Program-made: the position numbers and the translations under genes
NCBI GenBank assembly: GCA_964252035.1
Contig: OZ176200.1
DNA from: Podarcis erhardii
Taxonomy: Eukaryota
Length of the DNA stretch: 64,000 nt
Direction: 5' to 3' (one strand)
In this document: positions 30,052-57,308 of the stretch, in pieces
How positions within the stretch are numbered: position 1 is the stretch's first letter
Layout of the letters: every line of letters starts with the position of its first letter
Notes under the pieces: generated by a model
What the model was told of the DNA's origin: nothing
The model's database searches: none
The model's input: only the letters and a program-made list of their open reading frames with translations

Positions 30052-32164
30052 AGAATGTAACTAGGGGAAATATAATGTGAGAAGCAGGGAATGGGCTGAC
30101 CCATGTCTTATACAATTGATGTTTTACCTGTGCTGTATAATGAGTTAAATACTTCATCCAGTTATTTAAGTTCCTGACTTTGATTATGCTGCACAGAGTG
30201 TCCCTTACACAGGAATTTGATTCTTGGTATTATATATTTGGTGGCAATTAGCCAGGCTGGAAACAAGGTCCTATTCTATTTGCATGGTAATGAAGCATTC
30301 GTTGAATGAAATCTAAACACTAATGAGATTTTATTCACAACACCTGATGGTTGACATTAATCAGAAAATGTGGAGAAGATGTTCATTTGTTTACATCAAT
30401 ATTCCTGTGGGTACTAGGCCAGGGAACATGTTAGTTTGTAAAGTAAACGACCAAGGGTGACGTGTCTTTGGGGCTTCAGGTCCTTTCGTACTGCAATTAA
30501 TCAGACCCAGAAAAAGAGAAATCATAAAAGGAAAGGTATTCAGCTATTACGTACTTCATACAGATAGTGTAGAATTAAAACAAAAATATTCCCCCACTCC
30601 ATGTGCATGCAATTAACGAGTGGAATTCAACATTGTGCTATTACAAACATTCTGTCTGTGCAAGCATGTCAGCTTTCCAGATGGAATGATCTCTCTTCCC
30701 TCCCACTGCACACAGTTTTGGGGGGTTCTCCCAAAAGAAACCCCAAGAACCAATTTTCAGAGGCATGAGGGAGAAAATCCCAGTTGCAAGAGCAGAAACT
30801 CTTGATCAGGGCTTCCACTTTAGGGGTTTGTTAGGTGACTCCCTTCCAATGTTTTGAAATCTTCAACACTTGGTGAATTTCATATCTGACTCTTCAGGAA
30901 GCATCTTGTTTTGCTGAGCGTGGAAAGTATTTGAGTCAATAATGTCAGATTTCCAGAACCATCATTTCATGTCTTATCTTATGCAGAAAGGAAAAGGGCA
31001 AAGAGCTTTTCATCAGATTGGGCAAAACCTAGAAGAACCCAACTTACAATGAAAGTAAAGGTACTAGCATTTTCAGAGCACCAGCTCCAACTTTTTCTGT
31101 GCCTGTGGCACTGCTGAGAATGCCTCATGACCCAGAGGTGTGCTTACTGTTGCAGCTCCAGCTCTCTGGAATCAATTTGCATTTATTGTATTTTCTTTCA
31201 CTTTTTATCTTCTTGTGCACCTCTTCAGTGGCTTCAGGCTGTGAAGTGGTTTAAACATTTGTAACATTAACTAATTAAATTAATAACAGCATGCCGTGTT
31301 CAAATAGCACTGAAGTCCCTCACATCTGTGCTCTCCACCAAAATGCCAACTCAGTGGGGACTCACCAGTGAGTTGGCAGCATAGCCAGTACTGAAGTAAA
31401 GGACTTTACCGCTGAAGTCAAAATACGGATGTTGATAGTTCATAACGTTTATTGTCTCCTCTCGCTTGTATTGAAGCAAAAGGATTTGTTCAAAATCTAG
31501 ATTGGTTAGGCTTGAAGATGCTGGCCTGCTTCAAATGTAGAGAAACCAGAGGAGGAAATAGCAGGGCAGAAAGGGCAGAACTGATGCCTTAAGGGTGCCC
31601 CCCAATAAAGATTTTATTGTACCAACTCATTTTGAAATGTATTTCTTCTTCAGGGAGACTTTAAAACACAGCTCTGTATTTTATAGTATGCTCTGTACCC
31701 ATGTGTCTCTCTGTGTGTTTTCCTCCAAGCATTTAGGGTTCCTGATCATGTGGCGAAACCCACACATATCCAGCTGAATGCACATGGCTTCCCCGGGCAT
31801 AGACTTCCACCCAATGTGCAAAGTTCCTTGAGTAGAACCAGTGGGGATGGGGAGAGCAAGTGCAGCTCCACTCACCCTCTCCTGTGAAGTGCCAAATCAG
31901 AACAAGCTAATGAATACATTTATTTTGCTCTGAGCTGCTGTTTTCAATGCTTTTGTTGTAATTGTGTTTTTATTCTTTAGTGAAGCAGTCTGATTGCTTC
32001 AGATCTGTGGTCTTGTAATTCTTACAGATGATGATGATGATAATAATAATAATAATAAAAAATTTTATTTATATCCCGCCCTCCCCAGCCGAAGCCGGGC
32101 TCAGGGCGGCTAACAATAATCAAATAATCATACAATCAAATAATCACACATTCAAGAATATTTC

Positions 32165-32924
32165 TGTCAGGGACGCAGCGGGAGCGCAGGGAGGGGAGGA
32201 GATGGAGAGCGAGGGGGAGCAATCCGAGGGCAGCGTAGGAGAAGATGACAGTAGCCCGAGAGATTCCATGAGCCTCTCCAGCGAATCAGAAGATTCACAG
32301 AAGGGGGCGCCGATGGCCAGGGCAAGGGGGGCCCCAAGGGGAACACCCCAGAAGCAAGGGGCCAGCAGGGACTCCCAGAGCAGCAGTTGGAAATCAGGAC
32401 CAGCTTCCCCACCAGAGCGTAGTGGGGGGGAGGAGTCCCAGGTATCAGGGCCAGCGTATTCACCACCAGCGAGAGAAGATGAGTCAGGGTTGACCACGCC
32501 TCCATCGGAGAGCGAGGGAACGGTCAAGAGGAAGGTTGCCGGCTGGGCGCGCGCGCCAAGTTCAAATGTACAGGCGAGCGGCACAGCAGGTAGCCCGGAT
32601 AGGGAACCAGGTCCTAAAGCCCGCCGGAAGGAGGGGCAAGAATCAGGGGGGTCAGCGTCAGAAGAGTCCAGAAAGGATGAAACCCCAGCGGGCAGGAGGG
32701 CCCAGAGGAGGAAGGAGCTAAGGAAGAGGTGGAGCAAGGCTAGGGTCTTAAACTGGTGTGGAAGGGGAGGAGATTCAGACAGAACTTCGCCGGTCTAGGC
32801 TTTAAGACGTAGAGCGGCACGCTGCGGCTTTGAAATGGAAACTGAACTTCAATAAAGACTTTTGTACATAACTACAGCCGGGCGTTGGTCCTTTGTGAGC
32901 TGGGACCTAAGGGCGGCTCTGACA
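32165..32924 (+). mobile_element. Solo LTR (760 bp)
   Basis: Termini TGTCAG...CTGACA; perfect 5-bp TSD ATTTC at 32160-64 and 32925-29; AATAAA at 32851-56; CpG-rich. Confidence 0.9.
32202..32798 (+). CDS. Hypothetical LTR-encoded 198-aa protein (acidic/Ser-Pro-rich N-terminus, Arg/Lys-rich C-terminus)
   Basis: In-frame ATG in strong context (GAGATGG) 37 nt inside the LTR, no stop for 198 codons, TAG shortly before the polyA signal; no known domain recognised. Confidence 0.4.
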   Translation: MESEGEQSEGSVGEDDSSPRDSMSLSSESEDSQKGAPMARARGAPRGTPQKQGASRDSQSSSWKSGPASPPERSGGEESQVSGPAYSPPAREDESGLTTPPSESEGTVKRKVAGWARAPSSNVQASGTAGSPDREPGPKARRKEGQESGGSASEESRKDETPAGRRAQRRKELRKRWSKARVLNWCGRGGDSDRTSPV

Positions 32925-35707
32925 ATTTCATTATAAAAATTAATTAAAATCAAATTAATGGCAACCGATTAAGCAAGATTCTGTGCAGGTTGCCAGAGGA
33001 GGGAGTCAGGCTGAGCCCCGACCAAAGGCCTGGTGGAACAACTCTGTCTTGCAGGCCCTGCGGAAAGATGTCAGGTCCCACAGGGCCCTAGTCTCTTGTG
33101 ACAGAGCGTTCCACCAGATTGGAGCCGCAGCCGAGAAGGCCCTGGCTCTAGTTGAGGCCAGCCTAACCTCTCTGAGGCCTGGGACCTTGAGGATGTTATT
33201 ATTTCCAGACCGTAGGTTTCTCTGTGGGGCATACCAGGAGAGGGGGTCCCGTAGGTACGAGGGTCCTAGGCCGTATAGGGCTTTAAAGGTTAAAACCAGC
33301 ACCTTAAACCTGATCCTGTACTCCACCGGGAGCCAGTGCAGCTGGTATAGTACTGGATGAATGTGATCTCGCAGCAAAGACCCCATAAGGAGTCTCGCCG
33401 CAGCATTCTGCACCCGCTGGAGTTTCTGGGTCAGTCTCAAGGGCAGCCCCACGTAGAGCGAGTTACAATAATCCAGTCTGGAGGTGACCGTCGCATGGAT
33501 CACAGTGGCTAGGTCAGGGCGAGAGAGATAAGGGGCCAACTGCTTAGCTTGGCGGAGATGATGATGATGAACAATCATGATGATGATGATTGTTATTATT
33601 TTATTATTTATACCCCTGGGTTACCCAGGAGGCCTAGGTGGAGTAGCCTCGGTTAGGGCTGCCTGGTGAGTTCACAGTGAGAGCTTGAATAGGAAACTTC
33701 AACTTTCATAGCTCAGACTCTTCGCCACTGCATGACACCTGCCTGGATATGCAAGTTCAAAGATACATGCGCATTTCTGACTGGTAGAGAAAATGAGACA
33801 CCTATTCCTTCTCTGATCATTGCTGAAGTTGCTGGAGGGCGTGAGCTACATTTGTTGTCTCACTAGTGGTCTGATCTGTGCTCCCTGGCATATTTGCCGA
33901 ATACACCATTGTCCTTGAGGCATGAGCCATCAGGCTGTTGCGGGAAGCATGCTAGTGACTCTGATTACTTAATCGCCTCCATTCGTCCTGTCATAGGAAG
34001 ACTATAATAACCATTCTAATGCTGAATCATATTCAAGACGTTTCAGCAAAGTGACACAAGGTTGCTGCTGCCTTATGCCGCTTAAGTATGGCAGGGTTTC
34101 TATGTATCTGGGGTATGATCCTTTGCCTTATTGGATCAGGGAGAGCACTGCCACAGGGTGCCTGGACAGCACAGGCTGACCCAGACAGCAGATGAACAGT
34201 GTAACCTGGGGCAAGGGGGGCATTTACATGACACTGTCTATCATGTCTTTCTGGAAGTTGCTAATGACCGCAGTTGCTTCTCAGGCAGTCTGAGGATGAT
34301 GCAGTCCCAGAGATATGCTACCTTTAGCCTGATTCAGAAATGACCTTGATGAGCAATAGCCATTAGAGCCTTATAGAATGATACACTGGGGCGGGGAGGG
34401 GGGAGACTAACTAAAATTCTCTTCTCTCTATTCACAATGCTTCCTGCATGGACTCTCTGACTGCTACACTATCTTTAAAGGCATCTGAAAGCAGTAACAG
34501 CCTTACAGTACAACATGGAGTTCAAAGGGCATTAATCTCAGAAAATCTTCACTTCAGACTCAATTACAATTGGAGAATGAGTACTGATTTCTTGTCTAAC
34601 AGTAGTGTGTTCCTTATTTTATATCTCTGCCTATTCTATATTGAAATTCTTTCCCCCCTATTTTTAATAATATATTCTCTCTTTCAGCATTTATTACAAA
34701 GCTGTTTCTCAACATTTAAAATTTTATAAAGGTATCCTAAAATATGCATTTTAATGCATTTTGACATATTTTTTTAAAGCTGAGAACTGTATTGCAAAAT
34801 TCAGAGAACTGTGAAATCCAGATGATGATTATGAGGATAATAATTGGGAGGTGTCAGTTAGGTCAGTGTTAACACAAGTTAACCTGCAGTCTAAAGTGGT
34901 ATAAAAGAGAGAGAAGCTTAGAGGCCAGCAGAACTGGGCACAACATTTGTCACATACTTTACTCTGCAATATTTGAATTTTTGTCAGAAGCTACTGTGTG
35001 GGTAGGAGCTGAGTTAGATGAGGACCATGGGGTGGAGCTTGCCAGGATCCTGATCATGCCCACTATTCATGATAGGGTAGTCGGTGCCAACGGAAGCTTT
35101 CTTACCATTATGAATAATGGGGTCAGCGGTTCTAGTCAGGATCCCAGTGGGCAAATGGTTTTAGCCCCCATCTCTTCAAGACGTGGTTGTGAGGTGGGAG
35201 CTGTCATCAGTCCCTACGGTTTTGCTATTTTGACCCAACTGGACATAAGCACAGGTGGGGTGGGAGAGCGACAGTGAAGTTAACAGCACACTTTCAAACA
35301 CACTACAGGTGCATAAGAGGCAAATGATGGGAGCAGGAGAGCAATTTGACACCAAGTGTTACAGAGAAGGGCAAGAGTGAAGCTAGCACAAAACTAGGAA
35401 CAGGAATAATTAAACCAAAGGAGCAAATAAAATTCTGGGAAGGGAAATGGAGACATAAGGTAGGAAAGACAAGAGAGGTCAGGGTAAAAATGCAGTAGTA
35501 AGTCTTTGTGCTGAAATTAGAGTCATAATTCAGAGAACCCCTCCAGAAATACCCTTGGACAATAAGGATTCCCAACTTCTCAAGGTCTGAGGGACCCACT
35601 AGGCAAAGCTTGAAGTAAGGTAATTGTTTTGGGCTTTCTCATTAGAGGAAACTTGACAATGGTCTTAAGTGAACTCAGACCCTCTGGGCTAACGATTCCT
35701 TTACAAA

Positions 35708-41679: not shown

Positions 41680-41895
41680 TCTGAGCTGGTCCTGACTGAC
41701 CAGGAAAGAGATCTTGAAGTTGTGGTGGGTATCTCAGTTAAAATGTTGACCTAGTGTGCAGCAGCTGTGAAAAAAAGGCAAATAAAATTCCAAGCTAAAG
41801 ATCCTGAAGAAAATAATACTGCCAATGTCATCATGTCATTATGCAAAACCATGGTTACCTCACTTCAAAAAGGATATTGTAGAGCTGAGAGAGGT
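41680..41895 (+). mobile_element. CR1 LINE fragment (upstream part of the element split by the Copia insertion)
   Basis: gtgtgcagcagctgtgaaaaaaaggcaaat...cctcacttcaaaaaggatattgtagagctg matches CR1 RT sequence that resumes at ~44243. Confidence 0.7.
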
Positions 41896-43508
41896 GAAGT
41901 AACTGTGTAACTTATCCCTCTTTTGTGAAAGAACTGCTGCAAAGCAGAACCAGTGTACCTAGCATTTCTGTCACTGACGATTGCTTTCACCTTGGTGGAG
42001 AACCTTAGTTCCACCCCCTCAATCCAGCTCCTGATCAGCTGTGCTGCATCCTCCCTGGATTTGAGACCGTGGGTCCAGGTGTTCTGCGAAAAATCATCCT
42101 GAAACCTTAGCAGATACCTGGCCCCCCCTAGACTCTGTTCCCTGACAGGATTGAACAGATCTATGTGTACCAGCTGAAAAGGTTTAGTGGTTACCCGTTC
42201 CACCTTTGGGTAACTGCACCCTTGCACCTTTGCTTGTCTGCAAGTGGCGCAACTAATGGCACGTCCACAATCTCTAATTTTACACCCTCTGGTAACCTCA
42301 GGAAGCACTTGCAGTTCTTCTAGAGAACCATGAAAAGTCCTCTGATGCCATGCACAAGCACATTGAACATGAGTGGGAACTGTAGCACGCTGCGCCTGCG
42401 CTCTCTCAACCTTCCCCTCACCCCCAAGAGACATTTTAAGAATGAAAAGATCATTCTGCCCCTTCTTAACCTTGGCAAGTACTCTCTCCCCTTTGGAGAT
42501 TGTGCAGACATCATCCTGGAAACAAACCTGAAACCCTTTTTTCAACAAATAAGGCACAGATAACAAACAGTGATGCACCTCTGGGACAATACAAAAATCC
42601 ATCTGTTCCTGCAAAACAGAAAGATAAACATTAGCAAACTTAACAGTCTGTCCCTGTCCTTTTGGAACTGCCGTGCAATTCCACATCTCGACTGCAGGGG
42701 TCTCTGGAACCATGTTGCGGTTAGCTGCAGAGTCAATAACAAGATTCAGCTCCACACGGCTGTCTTCAAACAAAGCCATGCTAGCAGTTACTTGATAAGA
42801 CTCTTCCTGTTGTTTACCACGACGTCCACCTGCACGTCCGCCGGACACAATCCCACGCCTGCCTGCCTTTGCAGGCTTGTTGCCATGGAAACCCGCCTGA
42901 TTCCCATGAGAAGTGTCCTTCACAACATCCTGCCTCGGCTCTGTGCTCCGGTGGGGGCAACTGCCACGCAGACGTTGAACTCCAGTGGAAAAACACTGCC
43001 CAGGGCTCCTCCCAGCTGGCCTGGCCTTCCTTCTCCTGGAACGGCGCCTCCCACCAGCCTCGCCCCTTCTGAAGCTGCTCTCCGCTTCAGTACTTCCTGT
43101 GGAAAGTTTCTTAAACTTGCCTTTGGAACTCTTCGCCCCCCCGATCTGCTCACCAGCGCTCCTAGAGGCCGATACATCGGGAAATGGGCCTGCCAGTCCA
43201 GCGTCTCCAGGGCTCTGGCCTTCTGCTGAAGCTTCACACAAGCCCTTCAGCAACTCCCAGGCAGCCCTTGCTGACTGTACACCCTCCAAATGAGGCTTCA
43301 GCGATGCATGAATGCATGCTCTGAGCATATTCAGCTCTTGTTGCAATTTCTGCTGACTATCGTCCCAGCTAAGGGGTGGTGCTTTTGGTTCCCTCTGGCT
43401 TGCTTCCCAAAGCCCATGGACCAGGAACCAGCCCCTTATTCTTCTGCTCCAGGTTGCCCAACTTTTTAAAGTGAGCTTTTCCACCGGAATATCCTGGCTC
43501 TCTGCCAT
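41865..43508 (-). CDS. Ty1/Copia-derived 547-aa protein: partial Gag, degenerate protease, HHCC, truncated integrase core
   Basis: ATG at 43508 in AAAATGG context (the ORF track starts at an upstream TTG). Motifs: KL..W..WSRR...L..GLW and AWELLK (Copia Gag N-terminus); VIDSAANRNM and VPE...LLSV..L...G..V.F (Copia PR); WHQRTFH...CATC (HHCC); LVHIDL, GGARY, DDFS, SDR (rve core). Domain order PR-IN is diagnostic of Copia. Confidence 0.75.
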   Translation of the reverse strand: MAESQDIPVEKLTLKSWATWSRRIRGWFLVHGLWEASQREPKAPPLSWDDSQQKLQQELNMLRACIHASLKPHLEGVQSARAAWELLKGLCEASAEGQSPGDAGLAGPFPDVSASRSAGEQIGGAKSSKGKFKKLSTGSTEAESSFRRGEAGGRRRSRRRKARPAGRSPGQCFSTGVQRLRGSCPHRSTEPRQDVVKDTSHGNQAGFHGNKPAKAGRRGIVSGGRAGGRRGKQQEESYQVTASMALFEDSRVELNLVIDSAANRNMVPETPAVEMWNCTAVPKGQGQTVKFANVYLSVLQEQMDFCIVPEVHHCLLSVPYLLKKGFQVCFQDDVCTISKGERVLAKVKKGQNDLFILKMSLGGEGKVERAQAQRATVPTHVQCACAWHQRTFHGSLEELQVLPEVTRGCKIRDCGRAISCATCRQAKVQGCSYPKVERVTTKPFQLVHIDLFNPVREQSLGGARYLLRFQDDFSQNTWTHGLKSREDAAQLIRSWIEGVELRFSTKVKAIVSDRNARYTGSALQQFFHKRGISYTVTSPLSALQYPF

Positions 43509-43812
43509 TTTCTCCCGTTCTCCCAAGGTGCCCCACAAGCTGTACTTACTCAGTACCAGCTGATTCCGGCTCCTGTACGTGGAGAAACGGCCCAGCTGCT
43601 CCGGCTCACCCTTCCGTGGAGGAACGATTTCAGCTGCTCCCAGCGTTTAGCTCTGTCTCTCAGCAGCTCTCTTGCCTCTCAGAAGCAGGCAAAAATGCCC
43701 TCTGCTTCCCGGCATCAGGCTAGACTCACGGAATGCAGCTTCCAACCTCCGGCTAGCTTCAAAGCATTCCAGTAGCTCAAAGCCGACTGCTTTTACGAGC
43801 GTTGACTGACCT

Positions 43813-46402: not shown

Positions 46403-48977
46403 TTTTTTTTTTTTATAATAATTTTTATTGATTTTACAACATAAAGAAAAAACAAAACAAACATAATGCGACTTCCCCAAACCTCCCCTTCACTGCATCC
46501 AAATTTCAAAATTTTTAGCAATTCTTCATCCCATTTTTATATTTAATTCTCTTTAAGAAGAGTTTCTGCTTTATAAATTTCGATTTATAGCTGTAATTCT
46601 TAGTGTCCAATCCCCTGACATCTTAACATTCCGAAATTTTACAACAATTTTTAAGATAGATTTTAAATTTTTTCCAGTCCTCCTCCACTGTCTCTTTCTT
46701 CTGGTCACGGATTCTGCCGGTCATCTCTGCCAGTCCCATAAATTCAGTCACCTTGGTCTGCCATTCTTCCAGAGTAGGTAATTCTTTAGTCTTCCAATAC
46801 TTCGCCAAAAGGATTCTTGCTGCTGTTGTTGCGTACATAAAAAAGGTCCTATCTTTCTTTGGTACCAATTGGCCGACCATGCCCAAGAGAAAAGCCTCCG
46901 GTTTCTTTACAAATGTCCACTTAAGGATTTTCTTAATTTCATTATAGATCATTTCCCAGTAGGCCTTAATCTTTGGGCAGGTCCACCAAAGGTGATAAAA
47001 AGTTCCTTCACATTCATTACACTTCCAGCAATTGTTATTGGGCAAATGATATATCTTTGCAAGCTTGACTGGGGTCATGTACCACCTATAGATCATTTTC
47101 ATTATGTTCTCTTTCAGGGCACTACATGCCGTAAATTTAATACCTGTGGTCCATAGCTGCTCCCAGTCAGCAAACATAATATCATGACCAATATCTTGTG
47201 CCCACTTAATCATGGCTGATTTAACCGTTTCATCTTGTGTGTTCCATTTTAGCAGCAGATTATACATTCTAGACAAATTCTTAGTATTGGGTTCTAGCAA
47301 TTCTGTTTCTAACTTTGACCTCTCCTTCTGAAATCCTAGTTTTCTGTCCTGCTTAAAAGTTTCATTAATCTGGTAATAATGTAACCAATCTCGGACTTTA
47401 GGTTTCAATTTCTCAAAACTCTGTAGTTTCAACTTTTCACCATCATATTCTATAATTTCACAGTATTTTGGCCAGTCTGTATCCATGTTCAATCTTTTTA
47501 CCGCCTTAGCTTCCATTGGTGACAGCCACCTGGGGGTTTTACTTTCAAACAAATCTTTATATCGATTCCATACATTATACAATGCTTTCCTAATAATATG
47601 ATTTTTAAAATTTCTGTGTACCTTTACCTTGTCATACCATAAATATGCATGCCAACCAAAACTATTATCATAACCTTCCAAGTCCAGAATATCTGTATTC
47701 TCAAGAAGTAGCCATGGTTTCAGCCAGCAAAAAGCTGCTGCTTCATAGTAAAGTTTTAAGTCCGGCAGGGCAAAGCCCCCTCTATCCTTTGCATCAGTCA
47801 AAATCTTAAATTTAATTCTGGGTTTTTTGCCCTGCCAGACAAATTTAGATATATCTTTCTGCCACTTCTTGAAACAGTCCATCTTATCTAAAATTTGCAA
47901 TGTCTGGAACAAAAACAACAATCTCGGCAATACATTCATCTTAATTACAGCAATTCGGCCTAACAAGGAAAGTCTCAATCTTGACCATATATCGAAATCT
48001 TTCTTCACTTCAGCCCAGCATTTCTCATAATTATCTTTAAATAGATTCACATTCTTAGATGTTAAGTTCACCCCCAGATATTTTACCTTTTTAGTAATTT
48101 CCAAACCCGTTTCTCTTTGAAAACTATCTTTTTCCCCCACCGTGAGATTTTTTTCCAACACCTTTGTCTTGTGTTTATTCAATTTAAAACCTGCTACCTG
48201 ACCAAATATTTCAATAAGTTCCAAAACTCTTTTTGTGCTAGTTTCTGGCTGTTGTAGTGTCAAAACTAGGTCATCTGCAAATGCTCTTAGCTTATAATGT
48301 TTAGTTCCGACCTGTATACCTTTAACCAGCTGGTCTCTTCTAATCATGTTAAGGAAAACCTCCAGTACCGATATAAACAATAGAGGGGAAATTGGGCATC
48401 CCTGTCGTGTCCCTTTCTCTATTGGAATTTCATCCATAACCATACCATTTACAATAAGTTTGGCCTTTTGCTCAGAATAAATTGCACTTATACCATTTTC
48501 AAAGTTCTTGCCTACCCCCATTCCTTGGAGATTCCTCTTCATAAAACTCCAACAAATATTGTCAAAGGCTTTCTCTGCATCCACAAAAATCAAAACAGCT
48601 TTTCTATTTATGTCAGTTTCCAAAAGTTCTAGAATATCTATAATATTCCTCACATTGTCTGACAAATGCCTGCCTGGTAGAAAGCCTGTTTGGTCCCTGT
48701 GAATCTCCTCTAACAGCACTTTTTTGAATCTTTTTGCTAGAATGTCTGCAAAAATTTTATAATCCACGTTCAAAAGTGATATAGGGCGGTAATTCTTGAC
48801 TTGATGTTTCTCAGTTTCTGTCTTTGGTATAAGTGAGATGAATGCTTCCTTCCACGATTCGGGAGCCTTTTTCCCCTCCAAAACTTGGTTGCAGACTTCT
48901 TTCAATGGTTGTATTAACCAATCCTTCAATACTTTATAATATCTCGCAGTTAATCCATCTGGCCCTGGTGATTTTCC
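46403..48977 (-). mobile_element. Young L1-clade LINE (copy B), 5'-truncated, nested in copy A
   Basis: Poly(T) at 46403-46414, 3' UTR, then an uninterrupted ORF2 fragment. Confidence 0.9.
46623..48977 (-). pseudogene. L1 ORF2 fragment (reverse transcriptase plus C-terminal Cys/His domain), endonuclease missing
   Basis: GKSPGPDG, NYRPISLLNVDYKIF, DAEKAFD, GTRQGCPISPLLF, AFADD, KYLGV, CWKC...GTFYHLWWTC; open for 785 codons. Confidence 0.9.
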
Positions 48978-49236
48978 ATCCCTTTATGAAAGTCTGGTCC
49001 TGCTGGTTCCGAATTTTCCCTGTTTGTCTTGCCATCTCGGCATAGTTCATCAATTTCTCTTGCCGCTTACAGTGGCCATATCTTAGCTGCCTTTTGGTTA
49101 ACACAACTAAGGTGTTATTCATCATAGGCTAGTAGAACAAGTGAAATCTACAGCAAATGTTACATTGTGCTCCTGTTCAGTGTTCCAGCCATCAACTACA
49201 TCCTCTTCCAGGATATCCCATTCAATCTCCCGCTGC

Positions 49237-55610: not shown

Positions 55611-56578
55611 CCTTCTTCTTCTTTTTTTATAAATTTTTTATTACATTTTCAATTTACAGAAAAAGAAAAAAAGAACAAACAAAAAAGAAGAAAAAGAAAA
55701 ACAATCCATCTTTCAAAATGCATTTTTACGTTACTAACTGGACTTCCCCACATCTCCCTCACCCTGCGTTCTTTACAATAAACATATCAGCAAATTATTA
55801 CCTTGTTTCGTATCTTTTTTATATCTTTCAAAATATTTTACTTCTAGATTTAAAGTACCTTTTGTCAATTATTTATACCTTAAAATAATACATAAAATAA
55901 CTTTAAATTTCAACTTTTTCTTACTTATAACTTAATCTTCTGTTTTCCCAATCTAATTTCAGGAGCTCAAATTTCCAAATCATGCAGATTCTTAACATTC
56001 ATACAACTTATAATGTTTTTGTAAATAGTCCTTAAATTTCTTCCAGTCCTCTTCCATTGTCTCTTCTCCCAAATCTCGGATTCTGCCAGTCATTTCAGCC
56101 AGTTCCATATAGTCCATCAACTGCGTCTGCCACTCTTCCAGCGTGGGAAGATCTTGTATCTTCCAAAATTTTGCAAGAAGTATTCTTGCTGCTGTAGTTG
56201 CATACATAAAAAATGTTCTATCCTTCTTTAACACCTTTTGGTCTACAATGCCCAGGAGGAAGGCCTCTGGTTTCTTAGGAAAGGTGTACCTAAACACCTT
56301 TTTTAACTCATTGTAGATCATTTCCCAGAAGGCCTTCACTTTTGGGCAAGTCCACCAAAGGTGAAAGAATGTCCCTTCAGCCTCCTTACATTTCCAACAT
56401 TTATTATCGGACCGATGATATATTTTTGCAAGTTTGACTGGGGTCATGTACCACCTATATATCATTTTCATAATATTTTCCTTCAGGGCATTACATGCCG
56501 TGAATTTCATTCCAGTGGTCCATAACCTTTCCCAGTCTTCAAACATAATGTTGTACCCAATATCCTGAGCCCATTTTA
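55611..56578 (-). mobile_element. L1-clade LINE 3' fragment
   Basis: 184-aa ORF 55992-56546 closely paralogous to the C-terminus of the 46623 ORF; TSD TAAGATTTCCT at 55600 and 56579. Confidence 0.9.
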
Positions 56579-57308
56579 TAAGATTTCCTTCTGATGATCT
56601 AAGTGGCTGGGCTGCACTGGCCCCCTTTTAAAATGCTAGGAGTAGACTGGAGTAAAGCCTCATGAAACAGTCCGCTCCTATTGCCCCACCCCCCAGCCAC
56701 CGTGGATTGGCTGAATTTGAATCTGGGTTTGGTAGGAAAGCTGAACCCACTCTGACGGCTGTGGGAGCATAGCAACAGCTCAAAGAAAATGGTGTGGCCC
56801 CAGGAAGAGGGGGAAGCTCCGTGTTGGGTCCACCATGGGAATAGGTGAGTGGCCATTTTGTGCTTTAAAAGTGAACGACACCTTAGATGGAGTTTGGAAT
56901 TGCATAGGCAGAAGTGGAGATGGAAGAAAATAATATAGTGGTTGGTATATAATTAGGCAGCACCAGCTGCAGCTTCCAAAACATCTTTCAAAAGACTTTA
57001 AAAGGCTATAAAGTAGAAATGAACCATATACATTGCCATGCCCTGTCTCCTGCAAGAATACTGTGATTAAATATCCTTGAATATATGATAGCTTGTATCT
57101 GTAGAGATAGTTGTTCTATTTAAACTTGATTGAAGCAAATGCTTGTGCAACAAAGTCTTGACTGTGCACACCATGCACTTTAAGTTTAGTGGGGGGAGTG
57201 TATCATCAGCTATGGATGGTCATTCATTAAGCAAGCACTTAAAAAACCCCCATGTATTTTCTCCAGGTTGTATGCACATACAAGACAGCAAAACAGTAGT
57301 GTGTATGC

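Follow-up and report, generated by a model that had tools for sequence, protein, structure and literature searches.

A reading frame filling the U3 of a lizard LTR is probably the C-terminal end of a Gypsy chromovirus-type Pol

A long terminal repeat (LTR) that stands alone in a lizard genome and consists mostly of open reading frame raises the question of whether every copy distributes a small gene or whether the frame belongs to something larger. The first-pass annotation of this locus favoured the small gene, an accessory protein encoded in U3. We compared the LTR with its copies, with its parent elements and with two sister families, and the results point to the far end of Pol.

The solo LTR and its reading frame

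The window, by which we mean the whole 64-kb stretch of DNA analyzed, carries on its plus strand a 760-bp element (32165..32924) with TGTCA...TGACA ends. Because a 5-bp duplication (ATTTC) lies on both flanks (32160..32164 and 32925..32929, plus strand) and the adjoining internal region is absent, the element is a solo LTR. Comparison with its parents assigns it to a lizard Ty3/Gypsy chromovirus-type (Tf1/sushi-like) LTR family that we call F1. LTR ends of the TG...CA form with a short target duplication are thus found here, and a 5-bp duplication also accompanies 62 of the 128 LTR copies collected, which were classed as solo. The insertion splits the 3' end of a LINE, both halves of which match another copy within the window (I1, I16). 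The genome contains at least 150 close copies of the LTR, as judged from the best candidates scored.

Inside the LTR, a frame of 210 codons plus a stop (32166..32798, plus strand) is open from the second LTR base (32166) to a TAG at 32796..32798, and both frame continuity and selection point to the LTR-encoded C-terminal end of Pol/integrase. The first-pass annotation had described a long sense ORF filling the LTR, 597 nt and 198 aa when counted from an ATG at 32202..32204 (plus strand), with an acidic, Ser-rich N-terminus and an Arg-rich end, and this description holds. The tail is rich in S, G, R, E, A and P, beginning acidic and ending basic. The proposed start is another matter: the ATG is present in 116 of the 128 F1 copies, yet Podarcis and Logan relatives have Thr, Ile or Leu at that position, which makes a genuine start there improbable; the codon is probably an ordinary Met. 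Searches of Pfam and the ESM Atlas with the 198-aa protein gave no match, and such a blank is no proof of novelty. AlphaFold, run with a 10-row alignment, returned a mean pLDDT of 37.6 and left even the SH3 and chromodomain unfolded; its sole informative part was a weakly predicted helix at the terminal Arg-rich motif.

The family stop is reached in 89 of the 128 LTR copies collected, a set selected by similarity and partly through a protein search, which favours open copies. The same holds for 73 of 105 independent units (the 128 copies less 23 that were 5'/3' partners or duplicates) and for 47 of 60 solos. All 105 units retain the terminal stop, and internal stops are private to single copies, except one found twice. 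In dinucleotide shuffles the same frame stayed fully open in 18 of 2000 and any sense frame in 41 of 2000; an open frame from composition alone is unlikely yet possible, and the family data decide. An antisense frame of 216 aa overlaps the ORF (32144..32794, minus strand). Its constraint was not significant in the shared-versus-private test described below, and it is probably a shadow of the sense frame.

Continuity with Pol and the sister families

We fetched 38 loci with internal sequence in addition to two found earlier, and 35 F1 copies were parsed from these 40 loci. The parents carry gag (Retrotrans_gag, Ty3 capsid, CCHC) and an overlapping pol with PR-RT-RH-IN and a Tf2-type SH3, and no env-like frame was found in the full-length F1 parents examined; the domain order is that of a Gypsy element, gag followed by PR-RT-RH-IN without env. 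After the SH3 come a degenerate chromodomain, an acidic spacer of ~150 aa, the polypurine tract and the LTR frame. Five copies (L034, L072, L074, L076 and L086) have no stop between the integrase/chromodomain and the LTR stop, each being broken at another place in pol, and none of the F1 copies fetched is open all the way from protease to the LTR stop. A Logan protein, P0009, is 57% identical and stays in one frame between the chromodomain and the LTR stop, and in the UniRef entry P0022 from Podarcis muralis a single 1498-aa frame begins at the protease and ends with the same terminal motif. Frameshifts are also present in some public Podarcis entries (P0010, P0013, P0023). The frame therefore starts upstream of the polypurine tract, as the C-terminus of Pol, a point that the first-pass annotation had singled out for checking in full-length elements. 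We regard the identification of the ORF as a Pol tail as very probable.

The purine-rich stretch 5' of the 3' LTR has the in-frame length in only 11 of the 35 parsed F1 copies; 16 are one base short, with Pol ending about 24 codons inside the LTR, and 8 differ otherwise. These shifts are distributed over three G runs and were reached by different routes, a pattern that suggests separate events of slippage or errors of assembly more than one inherited shift, but they occur at a higher rate than those of the G run inside the LTR (10 of 128).

One locus with a 975-aa frame, L133, was considered as an intact parent and rejected. At L133:4574-7501 (G000:C17, near 9.31 Mb) an F1 solo interrupts the RNase H part of a different Gypsy element, and its chance in-frame insertion gives a gag-RT-tail fusion frame.

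The F1 chromodomain has no Pfam match; it aligns with the corresponding domain of F2, its core W is replaced, and on that alignment it is best described as degenerate. F2, which we found through a Pfam SH3_Tf2-1 search, has a canonical chromodomain (Pfam Chromo, E 3.7e-9) that also matches HP1/CBX chains. It is a very young, high-copy chromodomain Gypsy family with LTR pairs 99-100% identical (e.g. L174:1785-7274), and its copies are spread evenly along chromosomes, among the matches listed. The F2 Pol frame of 1376 aa ends 97 codons into a 396-nt LTR, and a frame of 1375-1376 aa is present in 79 of the 150 SH3 matches listed. A third family, F3, has a Pol that ends 110 codons into its LTR. 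F1 and F2 are 55% identical in Pol, and their LTR DNA is not alignable. In all three families the stop falls a few codons past the predicted RNA start, near the LTR end, regardless of the length of U3.

The terminal Arg-rich motif (RRAQRRKELRKRWSKARVLNW; 32694..32756, plus strand), where the helix is weakly predicted, has an in-register match in F2 and F3, and the form common to the three families is R-x3-R-x-E-x-R-[RK]-R-x-[SG]-x3-[LV]-L-x-W, encoded by differing codons. Taken alone, the F1-F2 match is not significant (328 of 3000 shuffles); the F1-F3 match was reached in 0 of 3000 shuffles globally and in 11 of 3000 locally. The fixed position of the motif near the stop, which these shuffle tests leave uncounted, adds weight. 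Other short motifs of the tail are conserved as well, despite 57-72% overall identity. Arg-rich motifs mediate RNA binding and nuclear or nucleolar import in Rev, Rex and Tat, and the terminal motif of F1 may resemble arginine-anchor motifs of the CENP-C type.

The nearest named proteins come from Podarcis lizards. Over the integrase end they share 84-91% identity with the Podarcis query, and over RT-RH about 90% with a copy from the present genome. In an RT-RH tree with 29 rows, sushi-ichi not among them, F1 and F2 formed one clade (100/100) that sits within fish, amphibian, tuatara and squamate elements (97/94). A chromodomain match was found in 112 of 122 related Pol proteins, with a median tail after the chromodomain of 12.5 aa, and among those 122 proteins the F1-type tail is confined to Podarcis entries.

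Six amphibian chromodomain Pols (P0079, P0086, P0089, P0092, P0130 and P0132) have unrelated tails of 61-246 aa, Gly-rich at the start, which may also run into the LTR.

Selection, RNA start and alternative readings

Selection on the tail was assessed by comparing shared variants, defined as common to one lineage or to at least four copies, with private ones. Across the 105 units the ratio of nonsynonymous to synonymous changes (N:S) was 122:99 for shared and 125:41 for private variants (OR 0.40, p=5e-5); without CpG sites the OR was 0.47 (p=0.002), and the other five frames gave p values of at least 0.17. A cruder version of the test, on 29 full-length copies, gave a tail ratio of 0.82 (p=0.5) and 1.76 for the last 50 codons. 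Between subfamilies (26 of 29 aligned full-length F1 copies), dN/dS was 0.32-0.59 for the LTR tail, all 95% intervals lying below 0.9, while the two control sense frames of the tail gave 1.03 and 0.99; values for the spacer were 0.30-0.54, for the chromodomain 0.14-0.24 and from the integrase core to the SH3 0.09-0.12. Five subfamily-level indels inside the ORF (+3, -3, -3, +63, -12) are all multiples of three and the two outside it are both -1, homopolymer variants being the exception to this in-frame pattern. The search for open copies with codon-level constraint that the first-pass annotation had proposed thus gave a positive answer. Private changes in inserted copies are neutral, at about 3:1 N:S, private stops included. 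The constraint on the tail is real but weak, as in a disordered region with short motifs, and within F1 it has no visible focus on the terminal motif.

A weak constraint of this kind, together with the in-frame indels, the fixed stop and a stop near the LTR end in all three families whatever the length of U3, could also arise if the frame were open mainly to shorten the 3' untranslated RNA and escape nonsense-mediated decay, the tail being tolerated and largely passive. We find this unlikely, given that dN/dS is below 1 with intervals that exclude 1, that the short motifs are kept at such low identity and the terminal motif with different codons in F2 and F3, and that other chromodomain Pols mostly have tails of about 12 residues.

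The position of the RNA start follows from the manner of priming. Two bases 3' of the 5' LTR lies an 11-mer that is the complement of a segment in the same element's LTR, and the complement is exact in 21 of 25 5' LTRs across five co-varying variants; none of 5000 permutations of the pairing reached 21 (mean 5.2, maximum 14). Such complementarity was also present in all six F2/F3 elements. Judged from the pairing, the F1 primer site bears the mark of self-priming known from the Tf1/sushi group, where the 5' end of an element's mRNA anneals to the primer site (PMC4600332, PMC6317226). At our locus the 11-nt segment is at 32777..32787 (plus strand), with one mismatch versus the commonest primer site. 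From the position of this segment we place the putative RNA 5' end, and with it the start of R, near 32777, which makes 32165..32776 (plus strand) the predicted U3, almost entirely coding. When the R-U5-primer region is folded, the 11-bp self-primer helix forms, with a z of only -1.58.

The polyadenylation signal AATAAA is at 32851..32856 (plus strand). It had been noted earlier that the frame ends before a TTTAA and the AATAAA; the TTTAA (32801), 3' of the stop, falls downstream of the predicted RNA start. The TATA-like site is probably TTAAA at 32748..32752 (plus strand), which lies within the coding frame and 25-29 nt 5' of that start. The element is covered by contigs from three runs guessed to be RNA and one of unrecorded kind, in which start, strand and level are not readable. 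Among the 15 contigs listed, 28 others being outside that listing, none joined the end of the 5' LTR with the purine tract.

In L033 (1955-2010) the leader directly 3' of the primer site repeats the opening bases of the LTR in diverged form. This leader repeat is in the gag frame, upstream of the gag ATG.

A separate U3 protein could also, or mainly, be made from full-length elements through a spliced or subgenomic RNA and an in-frame ATG located where the polypurine tract ends. A good-context in-frame ATG does lie just 5' of the LTR in 31 of 35 F1 copies and in Podarcis relatives, but F2 and F3 carry GTG at that position, and the spacer 5' of the ATG is as constrained as the tail. A donor-like GTAAG follows all F1 5' LTRs but one, among those listed; it belongs to the self-priming site, however, and F2 and F3 lack a GT donor 3' of the LTR. 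In many F1 copies the upstream part is out of frame and the U3 frame is still open, but these copies are mostly young, so their open U3 frame requires no selection. We consider a separate U3 protein quite improbable.

Coding frames that overlap U3 are known from MMTV sag and lentiviral nef, which are separate genes of enveloped retroviruses with mRNAs of their own. The first-pass annotation had likened the LTR frame to these genes and proposed a regulator that every solo LTR could express from the ATG at 32202. The likeness fails, as the F1 frame is continuous with and fused to Pol in a Gypsy element without env, which is no retrovirus. The idea of a small gene spread with each solo LTR fares no better: 611 of the 633 coding bases lie upstream of the predicted RNA start, i.e. 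in U3, so a solo LTR would not transcribe the ORF, and it would be read only through host read-through, with no expression from the LTR's own promoter. The open frame in most solos, the Arg-rich end and the wide presence of the ATG within F1 might suggest such a regulator, as might the in-frame fusion of the L133 solo with another element's gag-RT, an example of how host read-through can capture the frame by chance; with neutral private changes that include stops and with an ATG not conserved among relatives, we hold it to be very improbable. That a T-poor, purine-rich composition alone gave rise to the ORF (T content of the frame 10.6%, with the occasional open shuffle and the open antisense frame in its favour) has a negligible chance of being correct, refuted as it is by frame-specific selection, in-frame indels, continuity with Pol and the layout of the sister families.

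Possible function, chromosome ends and known systems

Our preferred reading is that the ORF encodes the last 210 residues of a Gypsy chromovirus-type Pol, likely as a mostly disordered import or tethering tail, and that a solo LTR would not express this tail from its own promoter; as a whole we consider this probable. RNA would start at the self-primer (~32777), and the genomic RNA would bear U3 at its 3' end. Pol would be reached from gag through an overlap that suggests frameshifting and would be translated through U3, terminating 53 nt before the AATAAA. The tail would then either remain on integrase or be removed by protease. The basic clusters of the tail (VKRKV, PGPKARRK and the terminal Arg-rich helix) may act as a nuclear localization signal or as a tether, as analogy with the C-terminal end of Ty1 integrase and with the CR motif of plants suggests. 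Whether nuclear import or chromatin tethering is the tail's main job is, by the same analogy, about an even call.

The genomic distribution of F1 differs from that of its sisters. Among the best-scoring LTR matches listed, with contig C19 and one unplaced contig left out and neighbours merged, F1 has 18 of its 128 loci within 0.5 Mb of the end of a chromosome-scale contig, 9 per end, where 1.7 were expected. This is an enrichment of about tenfold, which the shorter-tailed sister families do not share (F3, 1 of 139; an F2 subfamily, 2 of 98). Counting copies with internal sequence within 1.5 Mb of an end gave 17 of 29 for F1 versus 1 of 23 for paired F2-subfamily LTRs (p=3e-5), and verified F1 solos are less end-enriched (7 of 56, p=0.006). 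F1 LTR pairs are 94-100% identical in 16 of the 17 pairs measured, and one F2-subfamily pair is 97.8% identical. The bias, seen in one family versus two among the matches listed, could be explained by retention or age. Since F2 and F3 have the terminal motif without the bias, any targeting would reside in the F1-specific tail or the altered chromodomain. It is conceivable, though doubtful, that the LTR tail is a new integration-targeting module and a vertebrate counterpart of the plant CR motif, in which the F1 chromodomain has decayed and a 360-aa tail across U3 steers insertion to chromosome ends. For comparison, Ty3 binds its tether by a chromodomain without an aromatic cage (bioRxiv 10.1101/2021.07.27.453949).

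Two other sources of the bias were considered. Subtelomeric duplication accounts for few copies only, the flanks of 48 end loci being mostly unique with two duplicated segments. Centromere targeting of the CRM-A type is not favoured, as enrichment is found at both ends (9 + 9) and is absent in the motif-sharing F2 and F3.

Several insertion patterns were observed in passing. The 30-Mb contig G000:C19 makes up 2% of the genome; of the 39 F1 loci with internal sequence 10 fall on it, as do 20 of 118 F2-subfamily loci, a density that might resemble that of a non-recombining sex chromosome. Three F1 insertions (L071, L139 and L204) occupy an identical 5-bp site in different copies of a LINE, presumably CR1-like, in both orientations, and three further copies (L026, L043 and L161) are located in one short repeat. 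F1 target duplications favour purine-N-W-purine-pyrimidine.

Among known systems, F1 is closest in plan to the Tf1/sushi group (Tf1, Tj1, sushi-ichi; V-clade), which is described with the same Gypsy order, a chromodomain at the integrase end and self-priming in place of a tRNA (PMC6317226, PMC4600332). The LTR ends are similar as well (PMC3601003). In contrast to that group, Pol in F1 and F2 continues past the chromodomain with a tail of about 185 aa (F2) to 360-400 aa (F1), and the F1 chromodomain is degenerate. The F1 U3 is coding and rich in purines, unlike that of the sushi LTR model, which is T-rich (PMC3601003). In Ty1 and Ty5, nuclear import and site choice are guided by short motifs, basic or targeting, at the C-terminal end of integrase, as we propose for the tail; Ty1 has a bipartite nuclear localization signal and a targeting domain there, and Ty5 a short targeting peptide (PMC7459421). 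These are Copia elements with motifs outside the LTR, and their likeness to F1 is one of description.

Plant CRM group A, a group of centromeric retrotransposons, is the described case of Pol running into the 3' LTR, a trait that F1, F2 and P0022 have in common with it. In that group, however, a CR motif stands in place of the chromodomain and the primer is tRNA-Met, whereas F1 keeps its chromodomain 5' of the purine tract and has a self-complementary primer site; F1 also differs in that nearly all of its U3 is coding and in its enrichment at both chromosome ends. F1 is a parallel to plant CRM group A, not a member. In the open literature we found no account of Pol running into the 3' LTR in a vertebrate chromovirus, subscription papers and repeat databases being beyond our scope.

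F1 and its sisters would thus represent a lizard clade of the Tf1/sushi type in which Pol fills U3, with a plant precedent already described. What appeared to be a mobile mini-gene would be the far end of an integrase, so that U3 serves as both promoter and coding sequence. Three related families in one genome that differ in tail length, chromodomain state and distribution offer a natural comparison for site choice by vertebrate Gypsy elements. Hundreds of solo copies that are stop-free from the second base can give rise to spurious gene models, among them several 'hypothetical' Podarcis proteins, and can fuse in frame with the target of their insertion.

Other mobile elements are also present in the window. 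A 593-aa frame at 41865..43646 (minus strand) looks to us like a Copia-type gag-protease-integrase fragment. Long ORF fragments at 46623..48983 (minus strand, open for 786 aa) and 55992..56627 (minus strand) are, we assume, L1/Tx1-like ORF2.
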